Source: Podarcis vaucheri | Taxonomy: Eukaryota | Assembly: GCA_965113315.1 (NCBI GenBank) | Contig: OZ220374.1 | Length of the DNA: 64,000 bases | Reading direction: 5' to 3' (one strand) | Shown here: positions 8,843 to 63,955 of the stretch, in pieces | Layout: each line of letters begins with the position of its first letter | Position numbering within the stretch: the first letter of the stretch is position 1 | The notes under the pieces: generated by a model | Told to the model about the DNA's origin: nothing | Databases searched by the model: none | What the model saw: only the letters and a program-made list of their open reading frames with translations | Position numbers and translations under genes: made by a program

Positions 8843-9002
8843 GGGGAAGAGACTGTGGCAGAGAATCAGCTTTGCACAGAAGGTTCAATTCCCAACCTCT
8901 CTAGGTTAAGCTGGGAAAGACTCCTGCCTGAGACCCTGGAGAAGTACTGTCAGTCTGTGTAGACAATACTGTGCTAGATGGACCAGTGTATAACACAGCT
9001 TA
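8843..9002 (+). mobile_element. Diverged tRNA-derived SINE
   Basis: B-box-like ggttcaattcc and body gactcctgcctgagaccctggag...gtgtagacaatactgtgctagatggacc, shared with 26121, 31640 and 59405. Confidence 0.6.
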
Positions 9003-9508
9003 TTACGCGCCTATTGCAAAGCCCAAATCCAAGGGCACAGTACTGGAAGCCATTAAAAAAACCTACAGCTGAAAATTGGGTACCAGAGGTAGCAGTCTCA
9101 TTCCACCTAATAGGAATGAGTACCGAGAGCTGGGCTAGGTGGACCTTTGGCCTGACCCAGCAGGTATTTTCTTGTGCCCATCAGCCCTACTTGCCTACCT
9201 GGCAGGTTCAGCCCAGCTACATGTTCATAAGAACTGCATCGAGTAACTCTTGCTAAACTGCAACTTCAGACTCCAGGTGTGGAACTGCACCCAACGATTA
9301 AAAACAAGCAAACGGAAATAATAATTTATTTGTACCCTGTCCATCTGACTGGGCTGCCCCAGCCACTCTAGAATGGTCACAAATAGAATCATGGAGTTGC
9401 AGAGTTGGAAGGTTACAGATAGGTAGCCGTGTTGGTCTGCCATAGTCAAAATAAAAAATAAAAAATTCCTTCCAGTAGCACCTTAGAGACCAACTAAGTT
9501 AGTTCTTG

Positions 9509-9546
9509 GTATGAGCTTTCGTGTGCATGCACACTTCTTCAGATAC
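9509..9546 (-). ncRNA. Minimal type I hammerhead ribozyme motif (mirror copy)
   Basis: Exact reverse complement of 9670-9707, located in the other arm. Confidence 0.72.
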
Positions 9547-9669
9547 ACTGAAACAGAAGTTGCCAGCTATCTCAGCTATCTGCCAATCTCCCATTCCCAC
9601 CACCCTTCTGAGTAATACCCCTCCCCACCTTCTCTCTATATAGAAGGATCTGGCAACTTCTGTTTCAGT

Positions 9670-9707
9670 GTATCTGAAGAAGTGTGCATGCACACGAAAG
9701 CTCATAC
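9670..9707 (+). ncRNA. Minimal type I hammerhead ribozyme motif
   Basis: GUAU-CUGAAGA-A-GUGUGC-AU-GCACAC-GAAA-GC-UC-AUAC: intact core, helix I GUAU/AUAC, helix II hairpin, palindromic AGCU in place of helix III. Confidence 0.75.
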
Positions 9708-9944
9708 CAAGAACTAACTTAGTTGGTCTTTAAGGTGCTACTGGAAGGAATTTTTTATTTTGAGAGTTGGAAGGGACACTGAGGATCAAATTGTCCCACT
9801 CTCTGCAAAGCAGGAATATGCAGCTGTCCCATATGGGAATCGAACTTGCAACCTTGGCATTATCAGCACCATGCTCTAACACTAGCATGTTAAGAAATGC
9901 ATAGGGAGAAGGAACATTTGTTTCTGGCATGTTCGTGCTCTACA

Positions 9945-10165
9945 GAGGAGCATATGGGACCTGGGAGACCAGGATTTGAATTGTGATTCAGCGCTCATTT
10001 ATGGAACTCACCTAGGGCTAATTGCTGTCTCTGAGCCTCTCTGTCTATTTCACAGGTTGTTGCGAGGATAAATTGGGGAGGTGGAGAATCATATATGCCA
10101 CTTTGAGCTCCTTTCGAAGACAGGTGGGCAATAAATGGAGTAACAACAATGTAAGAATGAATAAT
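9945..10165 (+). mobile_element. Diverged Squam3/CORE-type SINE
   Basis: ggacctgggagaccagg...tcacaggttgttgcgaggataaa...ctttgagctcctt, similar to 1520-1742. Confidence 0.65.
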
Positions 10166-10471
10166 AATGTGATATATGCAGAATGTCTCTTATACCTGCA
10201 GTCTGGCGAAGGCACAGGCCAGCAAAAGTTTCACAATGTGAATCTACTTATTATGCAGCTTGGCTCTTAAATTCAGTATTGCTGTACTACATGTCCTGAT
10301 AGTTCAGGACATGCCAGCAACCTGAAAGCAGAGCTACCTGCCCAAATGCGGGAAGCAAAGTATTTATTGCCTCATTAAAAAATGCTGGAGTGTCTTGTAT
10401 TCTGAAATTCTGGGAATTTTAATACTTGGGGAATGGGGTTTGGGGTGCCGAAGGGAAGTTCTTAGTCCACT

Positions 10472-10615
10472 NNNNNNNNNNNNNNNNNNNNNNNNNNNNN
10501 NNNNNNNNNNNNNNNNNNNNNNNNNNNNNNNNNNNNNNNNNNNNNNNNNNNNNNNNNNNNNNNNNNNNNNNNNNNNNNNNNNNNNNNNNNNNNNNNNNNN
10601 NNNNNNNNNNNNNNN
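10472..10615. other. Assembly gap (144 N)
   Basis: Run of N. Confidence 1.
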
Positions 10616-11067
10616 TGGAGGCAGAACAATAGCGCCAGTCTCTGAGTGACAGTAATGTCTGGCACAAGGATGCTGAGGCTGGTGCCTGTCTCCTGCTGCT
10701 TGACACATTATGATGCTGAGTTAGACGCTGCCATGTGTCTCAGTCCTCGTGATTATACACAGGGCGCTGAACTCTCGGTTGACATAGTCGCATCACTAAT
10801 AAATCCGGCCATCTTTTCAAGGTTTTCAAGCTGGTCTTTAGTCAAGGCCTTGGAAGCACTTGTTCTTTCTCCGTAATCTGAAATCCTCCCCACTACCACT
10901 GACTTTGCTAATGTGACAAATCTACAGCCTTGTGGGAATTCAAAAGACAGACAGATACTTCTGCTACACAGGATTGCAGATAGCAAGCTCAGCTCATTCC
11001 AGATAATATTTAGTGACAGCAGCCCATTTAGTACGGTATCTTAGCAAATCATCATTTATGTATACAC

Positions 11068-11580
11068 TCATAGAATTGTAGAGTTGGAAGGGACTCGTAG
11101 GGTCATCTAGTCCAACCCCCTGCAATGCAGGAATCTCAACTAAAGATGGCCCCCCAGCCTCTGCTTAAAAACCTCCCAAGAAGGAGAGTCCACAACCTCT
11201 CAGGGGAGTCTCTTCCACTGTTGAACAGCTCTTACTGTCAAAAAGTTCTTCCTGATGTTTAGCCAAAATCCCCTTTCTCATAATTTTAATCCATTGGTTT
11301 AAGTCCTGCAGGAGAAAACAAGCTTGCTTCCTCTTCCATGTGACAGCCCTTTAGATAGCTGAAGATGGCTAGCTTATCTTCTCTCGGTCTCCTCTTTTCC
11401 AAGCTAAACATACCCAGCTCCCTCAGCCATTCCTCATCAGGCTGGGTTTTCAGACTCTTGATCATCTTGGTCACCCTCCTCTGCACACGTTCCAGCTTTC
11501 CAATATCCTCCTTAAATTGTGGCACCCAGAACTGGACACACAACTCCAGGTGGAGCCTGACATAAGCAGAACAGAGGAGT
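11068..11580 (-). mobile_element. CR1 LINE 3' fragment
   Basis: ORF2 C-terminus HLELCVQFWVPQFKEDIGKLERVQRRVTKMIKSL...LRELGMFSLEKRR, and CR1 tail (attctatg on the minus strand). Confidence 0.9.
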
Positions 11581-13959
11581 ACAGCTTTCCAAAGTTTTCT
11601 GCTTAATACCAACCCCCTGACTCTATCTAATGAGGTGTATATTCTGTCCTCTTTCAATGGGAGGTCAAAGCAACACACATGGAGCTTCCCAGCTGGTTTT
11701 CCCACCCAGGCCAAGACAAGAGCTGGAACTACAACAAGCACCCTCAGACGTTTCTGAAGCTTTCTGCACCTGTCTAAGACTTTCTTAAAGAAGACCCAGA
11801 CCAGAGCCTGAAAGTTCAGTAGACCATGTGTGGCCAATGTGGTAACCTCCAGATGTTTTGAACTACAACTCACATCCTTGCTGCCCATTGGCCATGATGT
11901 CTGTGGATGAGTTGAAGTCTGAAGGGCCCTACATTGGCTTCCCCGCCATATAACTTTCCTAGAGACCCAGAAGATAGCCAGTAGCAGCATCCACAACTAC
12001 TATGGTGTGTAGGAATGTATTTCCTTGGCCAGAAGTACTGGCAGCACACCAGCGGCAAGGAAATGCTGCCATGAAAACCCCTTTCACGCATGCACACAGT
12101 CACACATTTAACTGGAACTTGTAACATGCAAAAAAGGAGGGGCAACTTGAGTATCTCCACATGGGGAGAAGAAAGCTCCATTTCCACATTTCAAGACAAG
12201 TGACAGCATTTGCATTTGCACATCGTCTTGTCATTAGTGCCCAAAATATTATGCCGGTTTTCTTGTTATCGCACCACCAAACCCTTTTAACATTCTACCC
12301 GACATAAATTGCTAAGTTCCATCAAAGAATCCCCATACAGGGTGGAATTGAAATTCTTGGGACACCTTCTTCTAAAAGAATAGCCACAGCAAAAGAAGAA
12401 GAAATATATATACAGTTAGTGATTAGAGTCAAGGGAGAAACCTCTCCTGGGCTACCATTGCTTCTGGCTGCAGCTGGTTTCGTTTTCATGCAGAGGCGCA
12501 CACAATCATGTGTAGAACTCGTTGCAATATGCAATACATAAACCTAGGAACTGCAGGGAGCAGAAGCGCTGGCGTAGCACAGCCACGGCAATCAGCAACT
12601 CTGATGTAAGAATAAGCGTTAGAACAGCCTGCGCCAGTCCTCCAGCTGTTTTCGACTACAACTCCCACCAGCCCCAACTTCTTTGGAGAGCGAAAGGTTG
12701 GGGAAGGCTGCTTTATAGCAAACGGGAATCAGATGCAATAAAGGCATGCCTTTAGGGAGGGGAACAAAAATAGTTTTCAGAACTAACTCGCCCTGCGTTA
12801 CCAGAAGATACATAGGATTGTTTATCTTGCGCTCTTTAATGCCATTCATTATGTCACAGAAACGTGATAGATGGGGTCTCATCTGCCTCCTTTCCACAGC
12901 CCTAATCTCTTTACTTTTTCCACAGTGGGACGTATTTAACCTCTTCTAATCATTCATCTTGCCTGTCTCCAGAACATTTGCTCATGCTCTGTTTTTAACC
13001 AGATTAAGACAGAGGATCCTCACTTTCAGGCCACCTTTATGTGACACCGAATCATGCTGCTAAAATTGTCAGTGGGCAAAGTGATAAATGTGGCACCATT
13101 TCCTCGGGTTCCTGGCAAGCAAGCAAGCAAGCTAAATAGGTGTGTGGCCGCAAGTACCCTAACACCAACACATCTCTTACAGAGTGGAATATTTTTCAAA
13201 GTAAAAACTGGGCAGATTATATTTGACTGAAGGGGTGTAAAACGTCGGGATGGGGGGCATTTAAATTAGACCAAGGGGTCATCCAGCCTAGCATTTAATT
13301 CCAGGTGCCCCTAAGGAGCTTACAAACAGAGCTGTTCAAGGCGCAAGCAGCCCAGGTGAATTCTTGGGATGGGCCACATTTTTAAGGCTTCAGCACACGA
13401 TCACTGTGGGACCCCCAAGCCCTGGGAATGACTCAATGCAGTCCAGAGATGGACTATATGGCAGAAGAGCACCACGGGGTACAACCAAAAGAGTCTCTGT
13501 TCAAAGAGATGAGCTGGTTCAAAGAACATGGGTGAACTATCGGCCGGTTCAGACTCTGGAATACCAACTACCAAAGTAGCCGCATTTTACCAGCACAACT
13601 TCCTGGCAGTGGTTCTCAGGAATATAGAAGCACTTTCATCGCCCCACTCCAGCTACCATACAGAGTGGGGAGGAGAGACACAGTGTGGAGGGTCTTCCAG
13701 CATAAGAACCCTTATAGGACTGCTGTGAGGGATTTTGACGGCAAGCTTGCTCTTGAACTACTACGTTGCTGTCTGCACAGATCTGGAAGAGGGGTCCAAA
13801 GTGCCATCTGGCCAGTTTATACGTTCAGTTTGGGCTGCTGTCATCTAGGAATGAGATGTTTGAAGGGGCATTGCCTCCTTGACCCTTGCGTATTGCAGCC
13901 AATCAAAACTAGCCAGACCTTGTGATGTCTCGAATGGGGCCATGATGAGGCTCCTGCCT

Positions 13960-29191: not shown

Positions 29192-29718
29192 TGTTGTTGT
29201 TTAGTCGTTTAGTCGTTTCCGACTCTTTGTGACCCCATGGACCAGAGCACGCCAGGCACTCCTGTCTTCCACCGCCTCCCGCAGTTTGGTCAAACTCATG
29301 CTGGTAACTTCGAGAACACTATCCAGCCATCTCATCCTCTGTTGTCCCCTTCTCCTTGTGCCCTCCATCTTTCCCAACATCAAGGTCTTTTCCAGGGAGT
29401 CTTCTCTTCTCATGAGGTGGCCAAAGTACTGGAGTCTCAGCTTCAGGATCTGTCCTTCCGGTGAGTACTCAGGGCTGATTTCCTTAAGAATGGATAGGTT
29501 TGATCTTCTTGCAGTCCATGGGACTCTCAAGAGTCTCCTCCAGCACCATAATTCAAAAGCATCCATTCTTCGGCGATCAGCCTTCTTTATGGTCCAGCTC
29601 TCACTTCCATACATCACTACTGGGAAAACCATAGCTTTAACTATACGGACCTTTGTTGGCAAGGTGATGTCTCTGCTTTTTAAGATGCTGTCTAGGTTTG
29701 TCATTGCTTTTCTCCCAA
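29192..29718 (-). mobile_element. Bov-B (RTE) LINE, 5'-truncated
   Basis: Uninterrupted LGRKAMTNLDSILKSRDITLPTKVRIVKAMVFPVVMYGSESWT...WRALVHGVTKSRKRLND*; (CAA)n tail; TSD gagaaacacatat at 29179-29191 and 29719-29731. Confidence 0.96.
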
Positions 29719-31639
29719 GAGAAACACATATAGTTGTATCCAACCAAGTTCCACTGAAATTAATAGGCCTAATGTCCATTAATTTTGATGGGTCTACTCA
29801 AGAAGGACTAACATTGGATACAACCCACAAACCCTGCTTGCAAGACAGAGGGAGAAAGCATGCCAGCTCTTCTCTCACCATCTTAGCCAAATGTCTGCAG
29901 CAGGAACTCAAGCTGGTTCTATATGCAGTTTAGAACCCTGGAATGTGAGGGTTCTAGATCACGTTGGGAATTGACACAAGTCAAGCAGGCTCCCCATTTC
30001 TAAAACCATCCCTCCAACTCATGGCGTGGGGTGATGGGGACAGCAGTGCTCTCCCTTGTTGCAAGAGGGATAAGAATGTCTGAATAGGGCTTATATAGCC
30101 ATGCATTCTGTACATGTTCAATGTTTCCCATGTCCAAGCTGTGGGTGAAGTTAAATCCTGGACTCCCTACCCCCAGGATTTTAGTAAAAGGTAGCACTGG
30201 TGTGTGTCTTTGTGTTCATTGTCCGTGCAAAAAAAATTAGCCATGTGCATTTTCCATGGCACAATGGTCGTACAGAACCCCGCCTCCCAAAACCAAACAG
30301 GCAAAGCTGTGGGAGAATGCTAAATTTGTGACCTAAGTAGAAGGCACAGTGCTCGTATTCAGCATGCATCTTTTATGTTTCATAGAAGCCTTTCTGCATG
30401 TACTCTGCAACTGCTCAGCCACCTGAGACCACAGTACAGGGACAGCGAATTATCTAACAGCATTCTATCCTATAATAGCACAAGCCTCTGTGCTCTCTTA
30501 AGCACTGATGTGCATCATGATCAGAGCCTAACTTTCACCTGCAAAAAGGGAAAAAAGGAAAAGGAAAAACCCAAACAGAGAGTTTCCATCACAGTTGCTC
30601 TGTACTAAAGCTGCTACTTCTGATCAGGAGAGAGCAAAACACTGAGCCAGTACTTGTTTTAACTCCCTTTATTCTATTCCTTTGGCGCTTTTGCTGTGAT
30701 CTGCATAGCTAGCTATCCTGAACTTGTGCTTGAACTGAACTGAACTGAAGCTAAATGTGTGCTTCAGTCTCATAATCTCCCCACCCAGTTCCTCCACAAT
30801 CAAGAGCAAAGCAGAAGACCAGTTGAAACCAAGGCTGTGCGTACCCATCCTATTCTACAATCCCTGTAGACAAAGCACTTGTTTTCTCCACCTAGTCCAC
30901 ACGTAATCTAGATCTGTTGCATATATATTGCCTCCGAAAAATGCTTATTGAGAAACTGATTTCGGTCCAAAGCAAAAAGCTCACTGCAGACTGATACCTA
31001 GTATTATATAAAAAATACGGCAAACAGTGCAATTGGAACAGACCATTTCGAATGATGCAGTCTGTCCTGGAGTGGGTACATCTGCCCAAGGGGACTTGCA
31101 CCTAGTCACGTAAATGTGCCAGTCTCCATTCTGCCTTCTACTGCTTTGTTCACTTCCCGCCCCTGCCCCAAATCTTGGACTCATTCAAAACAAGAACCTC
31201 ATCTTCATGTCTAACCTTCACCCACACTTTTTCTGCTAGCCTTGTGAATTCTGCCTAATTAAGAGCCTTTCAGATTCCCCCGTGGCCCAAGTTTTGTCAT
31301 GCAGAACGTGGAACTGGGAAAAAGGGCTGGAGGAAACGCGTTGTGAACATTCCCCACCCCTCTCCCCTGGGTCCGGTTGGTGCTCTTAAAATTGGCGTTT
31401 GTGAATCTGGGTGAATTCTTGAAATGTATTAATGGTGCTCATTAATTAAGACTCAGTGGTGATGTTCTTTAGATGACATTTTGTACTTCAGATATCCAAG
31501 CACATAATGTATATGTGTTCTGAAGGGTGCCCACGTGTATGAATCACATCCTGGTTTGTGTTCGAAATACATTCAAGTGTAATTCAGACCAAATCCATTA
31601 GACCTTCGATTTATCTCTTAAACCACGGGCAGGAAACCT

Positions 31640-42850: not shown

Positions 42851-43607
42851 TGTCAGGGCTGCTACCCGGTCCCAGCTCACATAGGACCACGCTAGCCAGC
42901 TTTCACGTTATAAGAGTCTTTATTGGTTTACAGGTTCCATTTCCAAACTGCAATGTGCAGCCCTACGTCTTCTATGTCAGACCGGCGAAGACCCGTCTGA
43001 GTCTCCGCCTCTTGCACACCAGCTTAATACCCTAGCCTTGCTCCACCTCCTGCGCCTTTCCTTCCGTCTCTGGGTCCTTCTGCCCCCCGGGGTCTCCTCC
43101 CTCCTACTCTCTTCTGACGCTGACCCCCCGGACCCTTCCGCCTCTTTGCGGCGGGCTTTGGGACCTGGCTCACTCTCCGGGCTGCTTACTGCGCCAGCTT
43201 CCGCTGCATTTGAACTTGGCGCGCGCGCCCAACTCTCTACCTTCCTCTTGACCGTTTCCTCGCTTCCTGATGAGGGCGTGACCACTCCTGACTCATGCCC
43301 TCCCTCCTGCTGAAAGCCTCCGGACCCCGATGTCTGGTCCCCTTTCTCCCCGCTGCTCCCAGCTGGGCACGTTGGTCCCGATTTCCAGCTGCTGCTCTCT
43401 GATCCCTCTCTGGCCCCTTCTTCCTGTGGTGTCCCCCTGCTTTCCCCCCTTGCTCTGACCGCTGGCGCTCCCTTCTGGGAATCCTCGGACTCACTGGACA
43501 GGCTCGGGGATCTCGGGTCGTCATCCCCACTCATCCTTCCTTCGTATTCCTCCCCCTCGCTCTCTGTCTCCTCCCTTCTCTGCGTCTCTGCTCCTGAACC
43601 CCTGACA
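42851..43607 (-). mobile_element. Solo LTR (757 bp), probably Gypsy/chromovirus
   Basis: Inverted termini TGTCAGGG...CCCTGACA; TSD acatc/acatg; minus-strand AATAAA at 42919-42924; CpG-rich. Confidence 0.88.
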
Positions 43608-43654
43608 ACATGGTTCTCCCTTCCCTAACAACCCTGGAGGCGGTGACTAGGCCC

Positions 43655-46956: not shown

Positions 46957-48347
46957 TATTTAATTTGTGTGTGTCAAGACAGCTGTTAAAGGTGGTAGGG
47001 CTCATAACTGTGCTGCTCACCTAATTCTGCATGCATAAGCCCCATATACAAATAAACAGGCGTTTCCAAGGAGGTCTGCTTATGATTGCCACCATAATAA
47101 GTCAACCCAATTCCCTGAACTTGCACACCCAACTTGGGTCTGTTTTACGCCTGAGGTTTTCTCCCTCCATGCCTTCAAAAATTGCAAGACATTTTACAGC
47201 TCTGGCTTTCACTGTAGTGAGAGAGATCTCCAAGGAACAATCCCAAGAGCTAAAGGCAATAAAGTCTGGAGAATTGATTATCCCAGAGTTTATTCCCCTT
47301 TTGATTCCTTTTATTGGGAGAGGATCTCTCTTCCTGCCACCTGACAGGACCCTGCATACTCATGCCTTTCTCCCCCACCCAGGCACACACATATTTCTGC
47401 CTGCAAAACTAGGAAGTAAGCTGGGTTGCTAAGGGCCAAGCCATTTCTATTTCCTCCAAAGAGGGGGAAAATAGCTTACCAGAATCCAGAAAATCTCCCA
47501 CAAGGATGCCACACACTTTAAAGAAAAAGCAGGCTGCTGCTACTGCTTCTCCCCCCCTCTTTCTTTCCTGCTATCCAATCATTTGCAGGATAAATCCTAA
47601 AGCTAGTTTCACTCCTGGTTTTTCTCTCTCTCAAATTGTCAACACCTTTCTTATCAGCAGCATAGGTTAATTTCCCAGCTCTCTCTGCCTACCTCACGTT
47701 GCTTAAGGGTCTCCTTCCTGCCTTACGGTCAAAACTGTTTTAGAAAGACCACTGAACTTCATCTTTCTGATAAATGATCAGCAGCCTTTAAAAGCTTTTC
47801 TCAGTAGGCTTAGTTGCAGCATAACCCTTCTCCCCCCCCCCCCGCCGCCACCACAAATCAGGTGCTCACAAAGCTATTCTCGAAAATGCCATGGATTCAA
47901 ACCAACACGTTGCAGAAACATGGGGTTGCCTGTGCTGCAGCTGCTCAGAGACTGAATAGGACCAATTGGGGCAGGGAAGTCCCACAAAGCTGGTAGGCAC
48001 CGATCAAATTACTCAGGCAAGGACTCTGAATACGTACTCAGCTTCAGATGGTGGATTTAGACAGGGGGAACCTTCTCTGCTGCTTACAGGCACAATTCCC
48101 CATCCCCAATGAAGGAAGGATGTGAAAGGCTGTTTGGGCATGTGCATGACCCCCTTAGCGCATGGGGAACTCACTATGTTGCCCTCCAGGTGTTCTGGAT
48201 AGACTACAGCTCCCATGATCCCTGACCGTGCTGGTTGGGGCTGATGGGAGTTGGAGCCAACAACTTATGGAAGGCATCACGTTGGCTATCCCTGCCCTAG
48301 CTAGATCCAGGCATTTACCAAATGCAGTTATCCTTCAAATTGTCATA

Positions 48348-49803
48348 CAGTGGTACCTTGGGTTAAGGCAGATGGCAATACATCAAATCTAGTAAGGGTA
48401 AACGCCCGCCTATATTTTGCGATTTGTAGGTCCATCAAATATGGGGTTAGATTAAACCCTTTTCCATAATCTTGGATAGCTGGATATTTACCTATCTTGC
48501 TCATATGGTCCTGAAGCTCTACATCTCCTATTCGTTGGCTCACCATCATTTTAGCCTTTTCAAAGCCTGAGGCTATGAGTTCTTGTGAGGAAAGCCCCAG
48601 GCCCCTCAATTTTTCATAAAGCGACAATCTCCATTTAGACTGGAACGGGTCTAGTAGAGTCAATGGAGCCACTCCCACTGGGAAAAATATGAGTTTTAGC
48701 CAGAAGTGAATCTTCAGGATCCATATCCTGGCATTAATAGGGAGTTGGCCAACCTCCAGCCTAACGGCAGTGTTAGAAACACAGGTAGGTAACCCTAGTA
48801 GGGAACGATAAAATTTAGTTTGTACAGATTCCAGGGACTTAAGTTTTTGACAATTAAATATCTGGGTGCCATACGTCAATTGTGGAAGTATTTTTGCAAC
48901 AAAGACCTGGGAGGCAGCAGGAACATATTGACCTCCTTTTCTGTAAAAGAATCTTATGATAGCTCTGGAAGATCTTTGCGCATTTGCAATGGAATTCTTA
49001 ATCTGATGGCACCAAGATCCCTTCTCATCAAAAATTATTCCAAGATATCTAAAAGATGTTACTTGCTCAATAGGTTGGTTATTAATTTTCCATTTATGTC
49101 GGAGTTTTCTCTTGGAGAACACCATAATTTTTGATTTGGTGTGGTTTATTATTAGGTGTTCAGCTTCGCAATACTCTGTAAGAGCTCGTAAAAGTTTTCT
49201 TAGACCCACACAAGAGAAGGAAATAAGTGCCGCATCATCCGCGTATATTATTTAGGTTTGGGGAATGAGTACTCCATCTTTCCGACTAAGGAGTTTATAT
49301 AGAAGTTAAAAAGAATAGGGGCAAGAACACAGCCTTGCTTGACACCATGGGAACTTTGGATTTCCTTTGATAGGTTCCCATAACGGTCGCATCTAACACG
49401 GATCCGAGTATTTTCATGTAGTCTACGGATAAGAAGCAAAAGACGTCTATCGATGTTTGTGACATTTAGTTTTTCCCAAAGTCTGTGCCGGGGTATCGAG
49501 TCGAAGGCTGATTTGAAATCTATAAAGGCTACATAGAGAGAGCCTCCTTTCTTTGAGGTGTATTTCTCCACTAGATGTTGCAATTAACTTAATTCGTTCC
49601 GGAGGTCCGTTCTTAACCTGAAACTGTTCTCAACCTGAGGTACCACTTTAGCTAATGGGGCCTCCCGCTGCCGCCATGTCGCCACCGTGCGATTTCTGTT
49701 CTCATGCTGAAGCAAAGTTCTTAACCCGAGGTACTATTTCTGGGTTAGCGGCGTCTGCAACCTGAAGTGTCTGTAATCTGAAGAGTCTGTAACCTGAGGT
49801 ACC

Positions 49804-62690: not shown

Positions 62691-63386
62691 TAATAATAAT
62701 AATAATAATAATAATAATTTTTTATTTATACCCCGCCCTCCCCAGCCAAGGCCGGGCTCAGAGCGGCTTACAAGCAATAATAAAAACAAGATGAGTGATT
62801 ACAACTTAAAAACAAAAATAAAATACAACATTAAAATAATGGAACATTAAAATATTAAAATGAAGCCTCATTGCAGGAGAAGGAAAAGAAAAAAGAAAAA
62901 GGGGGGCGGAGGGAATCAAATTGGCTCCAATCCAAAGGCCAGGCGGAACAACTCTGTCTTACAGGCCCTGCGGAAAGAAATCAGATCCTGCAGGGCCCTG
63001 GTCTCATGAGACAGAGCGTTCCACCAAGTTGGGGCCAGTGCTGAAAAGGCCCTGGCTCTGGTTGAAGCCAATCTAACTTCCTTAGGGCCTGGGACCACTA
63101 GGGTGTTGTTATTTATGGACCTTGAGGCTCTCCGTGGGGCATACCAGGCGAGGCGGTCCCGTAGGTACGAGGGTCCTAGGCCGTGAAGGGCTTTAAAGGT
63201 CAAAAGCAGCACCTTAAATCTGACCCTGTACTCCACCGGGAGCCAGTGCAGCTTGAAAAGCACTGGATGAATATGCTCCCATGGCAGAGACCCCGTGAGG
63301 AGCCTCGCTGCAGCATTCTGTACCCGCTGGTGTTTCTGGGACAGCTTCAAGGGCAGCCCCGCGTAGAGCGAATTACAGTAGTCAAG
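62691..63386 (-). mobile_element. Young L2 LINE 3' fragment
   Basis: Open LDYCNSLYAGLP...QNAAARLLTG...LHWLPV...RAFSALAPTWWNAL...; (TAA)n tail. Confidence 0.95.
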
Positions 63387-63955
63387 TAATGTGCTTGGAG
63401 CAACTGTCATTGTGCTAAATCTGCTATGAGAGAGTAATGAATCTTTCTTCCAAACTTCTCTCTCCAGCATCAGCAAGCCTCATAACTTTGTTTGCAATAA
63501 GGGGTAAATATTGAGCTATCTTACAGGATTGTTGTAAGGTAACAAATGCAACCTGAAAGTGCAGCAAAATAATGACCGCTAGCCTTGCCTCCATTCCCCC
63601 CCCCTTTCCAAAAGGCAGTCAACATTTGTGTGTTTACAGAGCAAGCTCCATTTTCCTTCAGTGTTTTATGGTGGCAGGGTCGTCGCCCACTTTGATTCCC
63701 ACCCCAAATATCATTACATTTTTTGTTAACTTCCGGAGCATGCCATTACTGCCTTGTCTGTTCATTTGGTTCCGATCCTGTCAGCGCTCCTCACCTAAGT
63801 TCACTATTGTGCATATGAACACCCAAAAGCACTACTTAAGTGCAAAGTATTATAAACGGGTAAGAGCAAAGGTTTAGAGTAATGAAAACATTACCTCACT
63901 GCAACTCTCTCCCACCTCACAGTCATGTCCATGAAATGAACACTGTGATCCTATA

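Follow-up and report, generated by a model that had tools for sequence, protein, structure and literature searches.

The window, a stretch of 64,000 nt of Podarcis vaucheri DNA, harbors at positions 9413-9762 a 350-bp insert that consists of two truncated pseudo-LTR (pLTR) ends of a Penelope-like element (PLE) set head to head. The insert interrupts an older dispersed repeat, which spans 9383-9412 and 9763-9880 and recurs 1.3 kb downstream (11062-11134) and in many fetched loci. It is bounded on each side by the 12-bp sequence AGAGTTGGAAGG (9401-9412 and 9763-9774, + strand), identical at 12 of 12 positions. Since uninterrupted copies of the host repeat, such as the one at 11062-11134 and those in the fetched loci, hold this 12-mer only once, it is a true target-site duplication (TSD), as the first-pass annotation had proposed. 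The final base of the left TSD and the first base of the right one are each also the next base of the element, an overlap of 1 nt at either boundary.

The left part of the insert (9413-9566, 154 nt, - strand) is an inverted, 5'-truncated pLTR arm that lacks a TATA box and carries a 34-nt tail (9413-9446, - strand), which is found on this arm only and whose outer end is the distal 3' terminus. This segment is recognized as the PLE tail because longer copies run from the pLTR through the 34-nt tail into the ORF, with the opening codons of the parent frame (M-A-D-Q-H-G-Y-L-S-V) in the tail; the insert holds only these 10 codons and no complete ORF. The right part (9567-9762, 196 nt, + strand) is a 5'-truncated pLTR unit without tail, which contains the 83-nt spacer between the inverted arms and ends at the proximal 3' terminus (...TTTTG). 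The arms themselves, at 9455-9566 and 9650-9761, are 112 nt each with one mismatch (9486/9730), just as first described. The TATA-like tatatagaa that had been pointed out is present at 9637-9645 on the + strand, but it is confined to the + unit and is missing from the minus-strand arm. It is followed by the predicted transcription start region TCAGT (9665-9673, + strand), which we take to be initiator-like. The head-to-head junction (9564-9581, + strand), compared with the family copy L017, shows a CAG microhomology and CAGCTATCT twice, and its sequence suggests a repair scar where the two arms would have been joined.

No host gene was recognized in the vicinity of the insert, and four of the five window ORFs scanned lack a Pfam match. 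Other retroelement fragments lie at 48343-49251 (RVT_1, E 9e-6) and, with no Pfam match, at 11286-11996, 29201-29797, 42977-43624 and 62916-63479; an LTR-type element at another locus (L052) has a frame similar to the fragment at 42977-43624. A run of 144 N occupies 10472-10615, 700 bp downstream of the insert.

The Penelope-like origin assumed from the outset is borne out by the parent family, whose ORF, encoding a reverse transcriptase (RT) and a GIY-YIG endonuclease (EN), ends in the same pLTR. The 880-aa open frame of one parent copy (L051) matches RVT_1 (E 2.6e-12), with DKG and YIDD motifs in the RT, and has a C-terminal GIY-YIG domain (E 3.1e-5), after which the frame ends in the insert's pLTR. 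Longer copies extend upstream into an ORF end, and the pLTR at the 3' end of the parent ORF recurs ahead of the ORF start in partial tandems; the order pLTR, tail, ORF is found in L058, L059 and L066, with an upstream ORF end preceding L058. An ORF starting from the ATG of loop II, as in the PAc element of Anolis carolinensis, was rejected, as it meets a stop after 9 codons and the real start lies in the tail. One further fragment (L008) gave no Pfam match, in agreement with the 3-residue gap in its GIY motif. The family displays the marks of EN+ PLEs, namely an inverted 5'-truncated copy, a tail of 30-40 bp and a TSD, and ahead of the EN the parent has a linker, C-NKPR-C-QL-C (CX4CxxC), that fits the zinc-finger-like CX2-5CxxC type. 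In the available text of PMC8557442 this RT-EN linker is described for Neptune and as common to Nematis. From the linker and the vertebrate host, the parent can be provisionally classed as a Neptune-type PLE.

The family is abundant and young. The 40 scored of 740 first-look candidates for the + unit in the 1.6-Gb genome are 99-100% identical, and a 34-nt stretch of the hammerhead motif described below has 10,646 exact genome copies, against 0 for its reversed control, so that the motif is not a chance occurrence. An older subfamily (L100-L119) has a pLTR 78-80% identical, the same hammerhead and the same TATATA hexamer, and a tail without the ATG of the young family. Four copies (L005, L011, L041 and L050) are distinct from the two-ended type, with stretches of ORF or pLTR inverted internally at the 5' end. 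The near-identical arms, the intact TSD and the 99-100% identity of the relatives agree with the recent insertion that had been suggested. The single arm mismatch is a variant present in 5 of 122 family matches, and it may pre-date the insertion. Contigs from four public runs end within the repeats on either side (~9347 and ~9853), short of both insert edges.

Each arm contains an intact minimal type I hammerhead motif, as announced by the first-pass annotation, with a 38-nt sequence that is identical on the two strands (9670-9707 on the + strand and 9546-9509 on the - strand). It is composed of helix I (GUAU/AUAC, 9670-9673/9704-9707), CUGAAGA, an extra A, the helix II hairpin (9682-9695), GAAA, AGCU (9699-9702) and CUC, after which, following 9703 on the + strand, the cut is predicted. 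This sequence fits the dimer-type minimal hammerhead (min-HHR), as far as the consulted text of PMC4209133 describes it, in its CUGANGA/GAAA/UH core, the extra base after A9, the G10.1-C11.1 pair and a palindromic remnant of helix III. The 14 nt of helix II form a perfect palindrome of their own (9682-9695 and 9521-9534). A scan of 9000-10200 against Rfam yielded no hammerhead among six matches at E<=10, which is expected for a motif without helix III; all six are miRNA-precursor models below gathering score and reflect the long hairpin.

Helix pairing is kept across diverged families. In 21 distinct motifs of other sequence, drawn from 25 fetched of 43 matches, helix II is paired at 77 of 105 positions, against 54.7±4.9 after shuffling, and helix I at 58 of 84, against 46.1±3.2, neither value being reached in any of 5000 shuffles; in this comparison the search pattern dictated the core, and relatedness was uncontrolled. 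The motifs (L120-L144) are drawn from a more diverged set of at least 43 minimal hammerheads, in which N7 is U and helix II has other sequences, and presumably belong to other PLE families. The preferential conservation of core nucleotides among copies did not materialize, as the core has decayed by 7-9%, like the flanks (9-11%), in 17 copies of the older subfamily, a count that leaves out two copies interrupted by other inserts (L104, L111) and two 5'-truncated ones (L003, L016). Such a test within dead copies is mis-aimed, any selection being visible only between subfamilies and families. Between the majority sequences of the young and older subfamilies, a single one of the 38 hammerhead positions differs (N17, C/U), compared with 19/68, 7/54 and 6/37 in upstream segments and 2/38 in the next 38 nt downstream. 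Because these downstream 38 nt differ at just two positions, the constraint appears to be on the whole leader and not specific to the hammerhead. The hammerhead structure is real for the lineage; no statement on the window copy follows from it.

The arrangement of the insert recurs throughout the family. Among 100 consecutive matches on contig C1 to a 24-nt probe just 3' of the cut site, 66 arms form 33 head-to-head pairs, none is paired tail to tail, and 34 are unpaired. One arm, and only one, bears the tail in 32 of the 33 pairs (30 typed by script, 2 by eye), the remaining pair having a tail and a broken end, and no pair with two tails or with none occurs among these 33. An earlier set of 89 loci, which has 13 insertions in common with the contig C1 set and from which duplicate loci (L031, L034, L055, L083, L091 and L098) were left out, also gives one tail in 32 of 33, the exception (L062) having two tails and no TSD. 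TSDs of at least 10 bp flank 29 of the 33 contig C1 pairs (median 13), and the N17 allele is common to both arms in 32 of them (28 C/C, 4 T/T, 1 discordant; Fisher p 1.2e-4). Junction position and arm length vary from insertion to insertion. In the 30 typed pairs, the arm that reaches further 5' is the tail-less one in 13 and the tailed one in 8, while both are equal in 9; in 9 of these pairs the arms start no more than 2 nt apart, forming nearly spacer-less palindromes. One head-to-head insertion (L182) contains two same-strand hammerhead 34-mers 48 nt apart (G000:C1:2564617 and 2564665).

The 5' ends of the arms are not scattered evenly. By ungapped extension, which possibly under-measures long arms, 43 of the 100 begin at the equivalent of 9665-9673, with peaks at 9668 and 9670, that is, at TCAGT and ~30 nt 3' of the TATA-like box (9637). 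A further 30 begin before 9660 and 14 at 9682-9692, in or at the helix II palindrome, and none of the 100 starts at the cut site (9699-9704). Genome-wide, a 24-mer lying immediately 5' of the predicted start has 3,331 exact matches, versus 13,985 for the downstream probe. We infer that 9665-9673 is the transcription start, and that the stubs would be run-off copies of uncleaved RNA. In the window copy, both arms extend upstream of this predicted start, to the 9650 and 9569 equivalents, like ~30 of the 100 arms, and the template of this copy was thus a longer RNA.

On this anatomy, family and set of counts, we consider it probable, with good confidence, that the insert is an ORF-less head-to-head PLE insertion in which both nicked target strands primed the copying of uncleaved RNA, and whose hammerheads are passengers, predicted to stay uncut on read-through. 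The element protein would nick both target strands and copy uncleaved element RNA from each nick, so that first-strand cDNA would grow inward from both sides: the top strand, primed from 9412, would begin after the tail, and the bottom strand, primed from 9763, before it. The two cDNAs would meet centrally and be joined through the 3-nt CAG microhomology with a short duplication, both hammerheads being carried along with the duplicated pLTR. Priming from both nicks would explain why the ends are set head to head, why a TSD is present and why only one side has a tail. Biochemical work on an anole PLE has shown that its protein cleaves and extends both strands, that two start sites flank the tail and that the template is uncleaved RNA, although inverted ends are not treated in that study (PMC11167929). 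The mechanism is borrowed by analogy from an element of the Poseidon clade, whereas the linker of the present parent is of Neptune type. One allele-discordant pair, the two-tail locus L062 and the 34 unpaired arms of 100 count against two-strand priming. For the family as a whole, we give an even chance to a model in which the Penelope RNP nicks the two strands ~12-13 bp apart, invariably begins at the distal site on one strand and at the proximal site on the other, and copies RNA of one source allele up to a 5' end fixed by a TATA promoter immediately ahead of the hammerhead. If this were true, the position of the start could be read off the thousands of stubs, which would also show that cleaved RNA does not serve as template.

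It has been argued that self-priming or fold-back on a single strand produces the mirror arm of such insertions. In the excerpted text of PMC3846280, fold-back on an antisense template is proposed for the inverted repeats of PLEs, and that of PMC8557442 proposes that the tail is left by endonuclease resolution. Fold-back likewise predicts the sharing of alleles between arms seen in 32 of 33 pairs, and it would suit the many junctions that are nearly spacer-less palindromes, such as those of the 9 typed pairs with nearly coincident starts. The window insert, however, has an 83-nt spacer, and its longer arm is without a tail while its shorter arm has one, as in 13 of the 30 typed pairs. Neither arm contains the other, so that neither is a fold-back copy of the other, and a target-primed strand cannot template a sequence that is absent from it, unless a free intermediate had been trimmed. 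The fold-back route therefore appears improbable.

Another question is whether the insert acts as a bidirectional self-cleaving cassette, cutting any read-through transcript, as the claim that it could self-cleave whichever way it is transcribed would imply. Both motifs are intact, the isolated 38-nt core pays just 1.3 kcal/mol to form helices I and II, and related motifs retain the pairing of both helices across families. On a transcript of either strand, however, the sense motif follows an antisense copy, and the 112-bp hairpin is predicted to win, with folding energies of -223.5 and -222.4 kcal/mol for the two strands. In an equilibrium folding model that covers RNA without proteins or helicases, the penalty for imposing helices I and II is 69 kcal/mol for the whole transcript and 61-63 kcal/mol for a nascent one that ends just past the motif. 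An RNA starting at 9650-9670 escapes the hairpin, but it pays 3.5-8.3 kcal/mol to downstream pairing. On read-through RNA, the hammerheads are thus predicted by the folding model to be locked in the 112-bp hairpin, uncut.

Lacking helix III, the motif needs a partner, and one RNA cannot form a tandem dimer because the two motifs lie on opposite strands. The palindromic AGCU had been credited with enabling dimers; the AGCU remnant is there, but the predicted dimer forms via helix II instead, whose duplex reaches -25.2 kcal/mol versus -4.1 for the hairpin, the AGCU duplex giving -2.5. For a metazoan min-HHR, the consulted part of PMC4209133 reports no cleavage by the monomer and weak cleavage by dimers, cleavage of PLE hammerheads as dimers is attributed to Lunse et al. 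in the portion of the review PMC6765202 that was available, and the anole PLE hammerhead cuts only with protein (PMC11167929). In three RNA runs of the same species label, sampled at 6-12% of reads and of low power, as ordinary RNA-seq is for cut ends, no read ends were piled up at the cut site and the unique flanks had zero depth; since 90-97% of mapped reads in the RNA runs continue into other loci, they speak for the family and not for the window copy. A self-cleaving cassette is for these reasons very unlikely. In the favored reading of two-strand priming and passenger hammerheads, the + unit would at most yield a short RNA from its own TATA promoter, whose cleavage would need a partner RNA and probably the element protein.

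That the palindrome propagates itself, copied as a unit in the manner of a non-autonomous MITE-like or retrozyme-like element, is scarcely credible, for although its copy number is very high and a tandem five-unit array of the hammerhead leader exists elsewhere, junctions and arm lengths differ across the 33 pairs, and the junction of the window insert occurs in none of the best 29 other matches to the + unit. The mark of non-LTR retrozymes, tandem direct repeats of a hammerhead monomer, is not seen in the window copy, which is inverted. The array (L213; G000:C1:5631954-5632397, minus strand) has five units of ~101-104 nt, the last one shortened, each opening at the predicted start site and closing at the proximal 3' terminus. 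It looks like a retrozyme or the outcome of repeated template jumping, and with units so arranged a hammerhead dimer could form in cis.

The inverted pLTR, the one-sided tail and the opposite-strand hammerheads are already published features. An inverted copy with a one-sided tail is described as typical of PLEs in the accessible parts of PMC8557442, PMC3846280 and PMC2377424, and the first two of these excerpts portray EN+ insertions (Pen2a_Av, PMC3846280; PMC8557442) that likewise have an inverted, 5'-truncated pLTR set head to head, a TSD, a tail of 30-40 bp on one arm that overlaps the ORF start, and a TATA box followed by an initiator-like motif. The window insert differs from them, within what those excerpts report, in that the ORF is wholly missing from its 350 bp, in its TSD of 12 bp (family median 13) versus 8-10 bp in Adineta, and in the strictness of its tail, which is called "optional" or "often at one end" there, whereas 32 of 33 two-ended copies here have it on one arm and one only. 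Opposite-strand pairs 100-700 bp apart are already reported for the min-HHRs of metazoan PLE pLTRs in the text consulted of Cervera & De la Pena 2014 (PMC4209133); compared with these, helix II here is 5-6 bp, a perfect 14-nt palindrome and the predicted driver of RNA dimers. PAc, or Poseidon_Ac, of Anolis carolinensis (Frangieh et al. 2024, PMC11167929) likewise has two 3' termini flanking the tail and a hammerhead in the pLTR, and in neither system does cleaved RNA show any sign of serving as template. The parent here is distinguished from PAc by its CX4CxxC linker (Neptune/Nematis type) and by its ORF start, which lies in the tail, ~60 nt past the cut site, while that of PAc is at helix II (PMC11167929). 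The strict one-tail rule, the allele sharing and the start-site pile-up were not found quantified in the literature searched; the family itself may be listed in the supplements of PMC4209133 and PMC11167929.

The locus is one of thousands and is probably inert, but it is a clean record of the likely insertion route, and its value is as material on how Penelope-like elements produce mirror-image ends and one-sided tails. The family makes sharp predictions that can be counted: each two-ended insertion should have a single tail and arms of the same allele, and 5' starts should fall at one fixed place and never at the cut site. The published anole in vitro system could test them directly. If such hairpins were transcribed within host genes, they would give rise to long double-stranded RNA and not to ribozyme switches.
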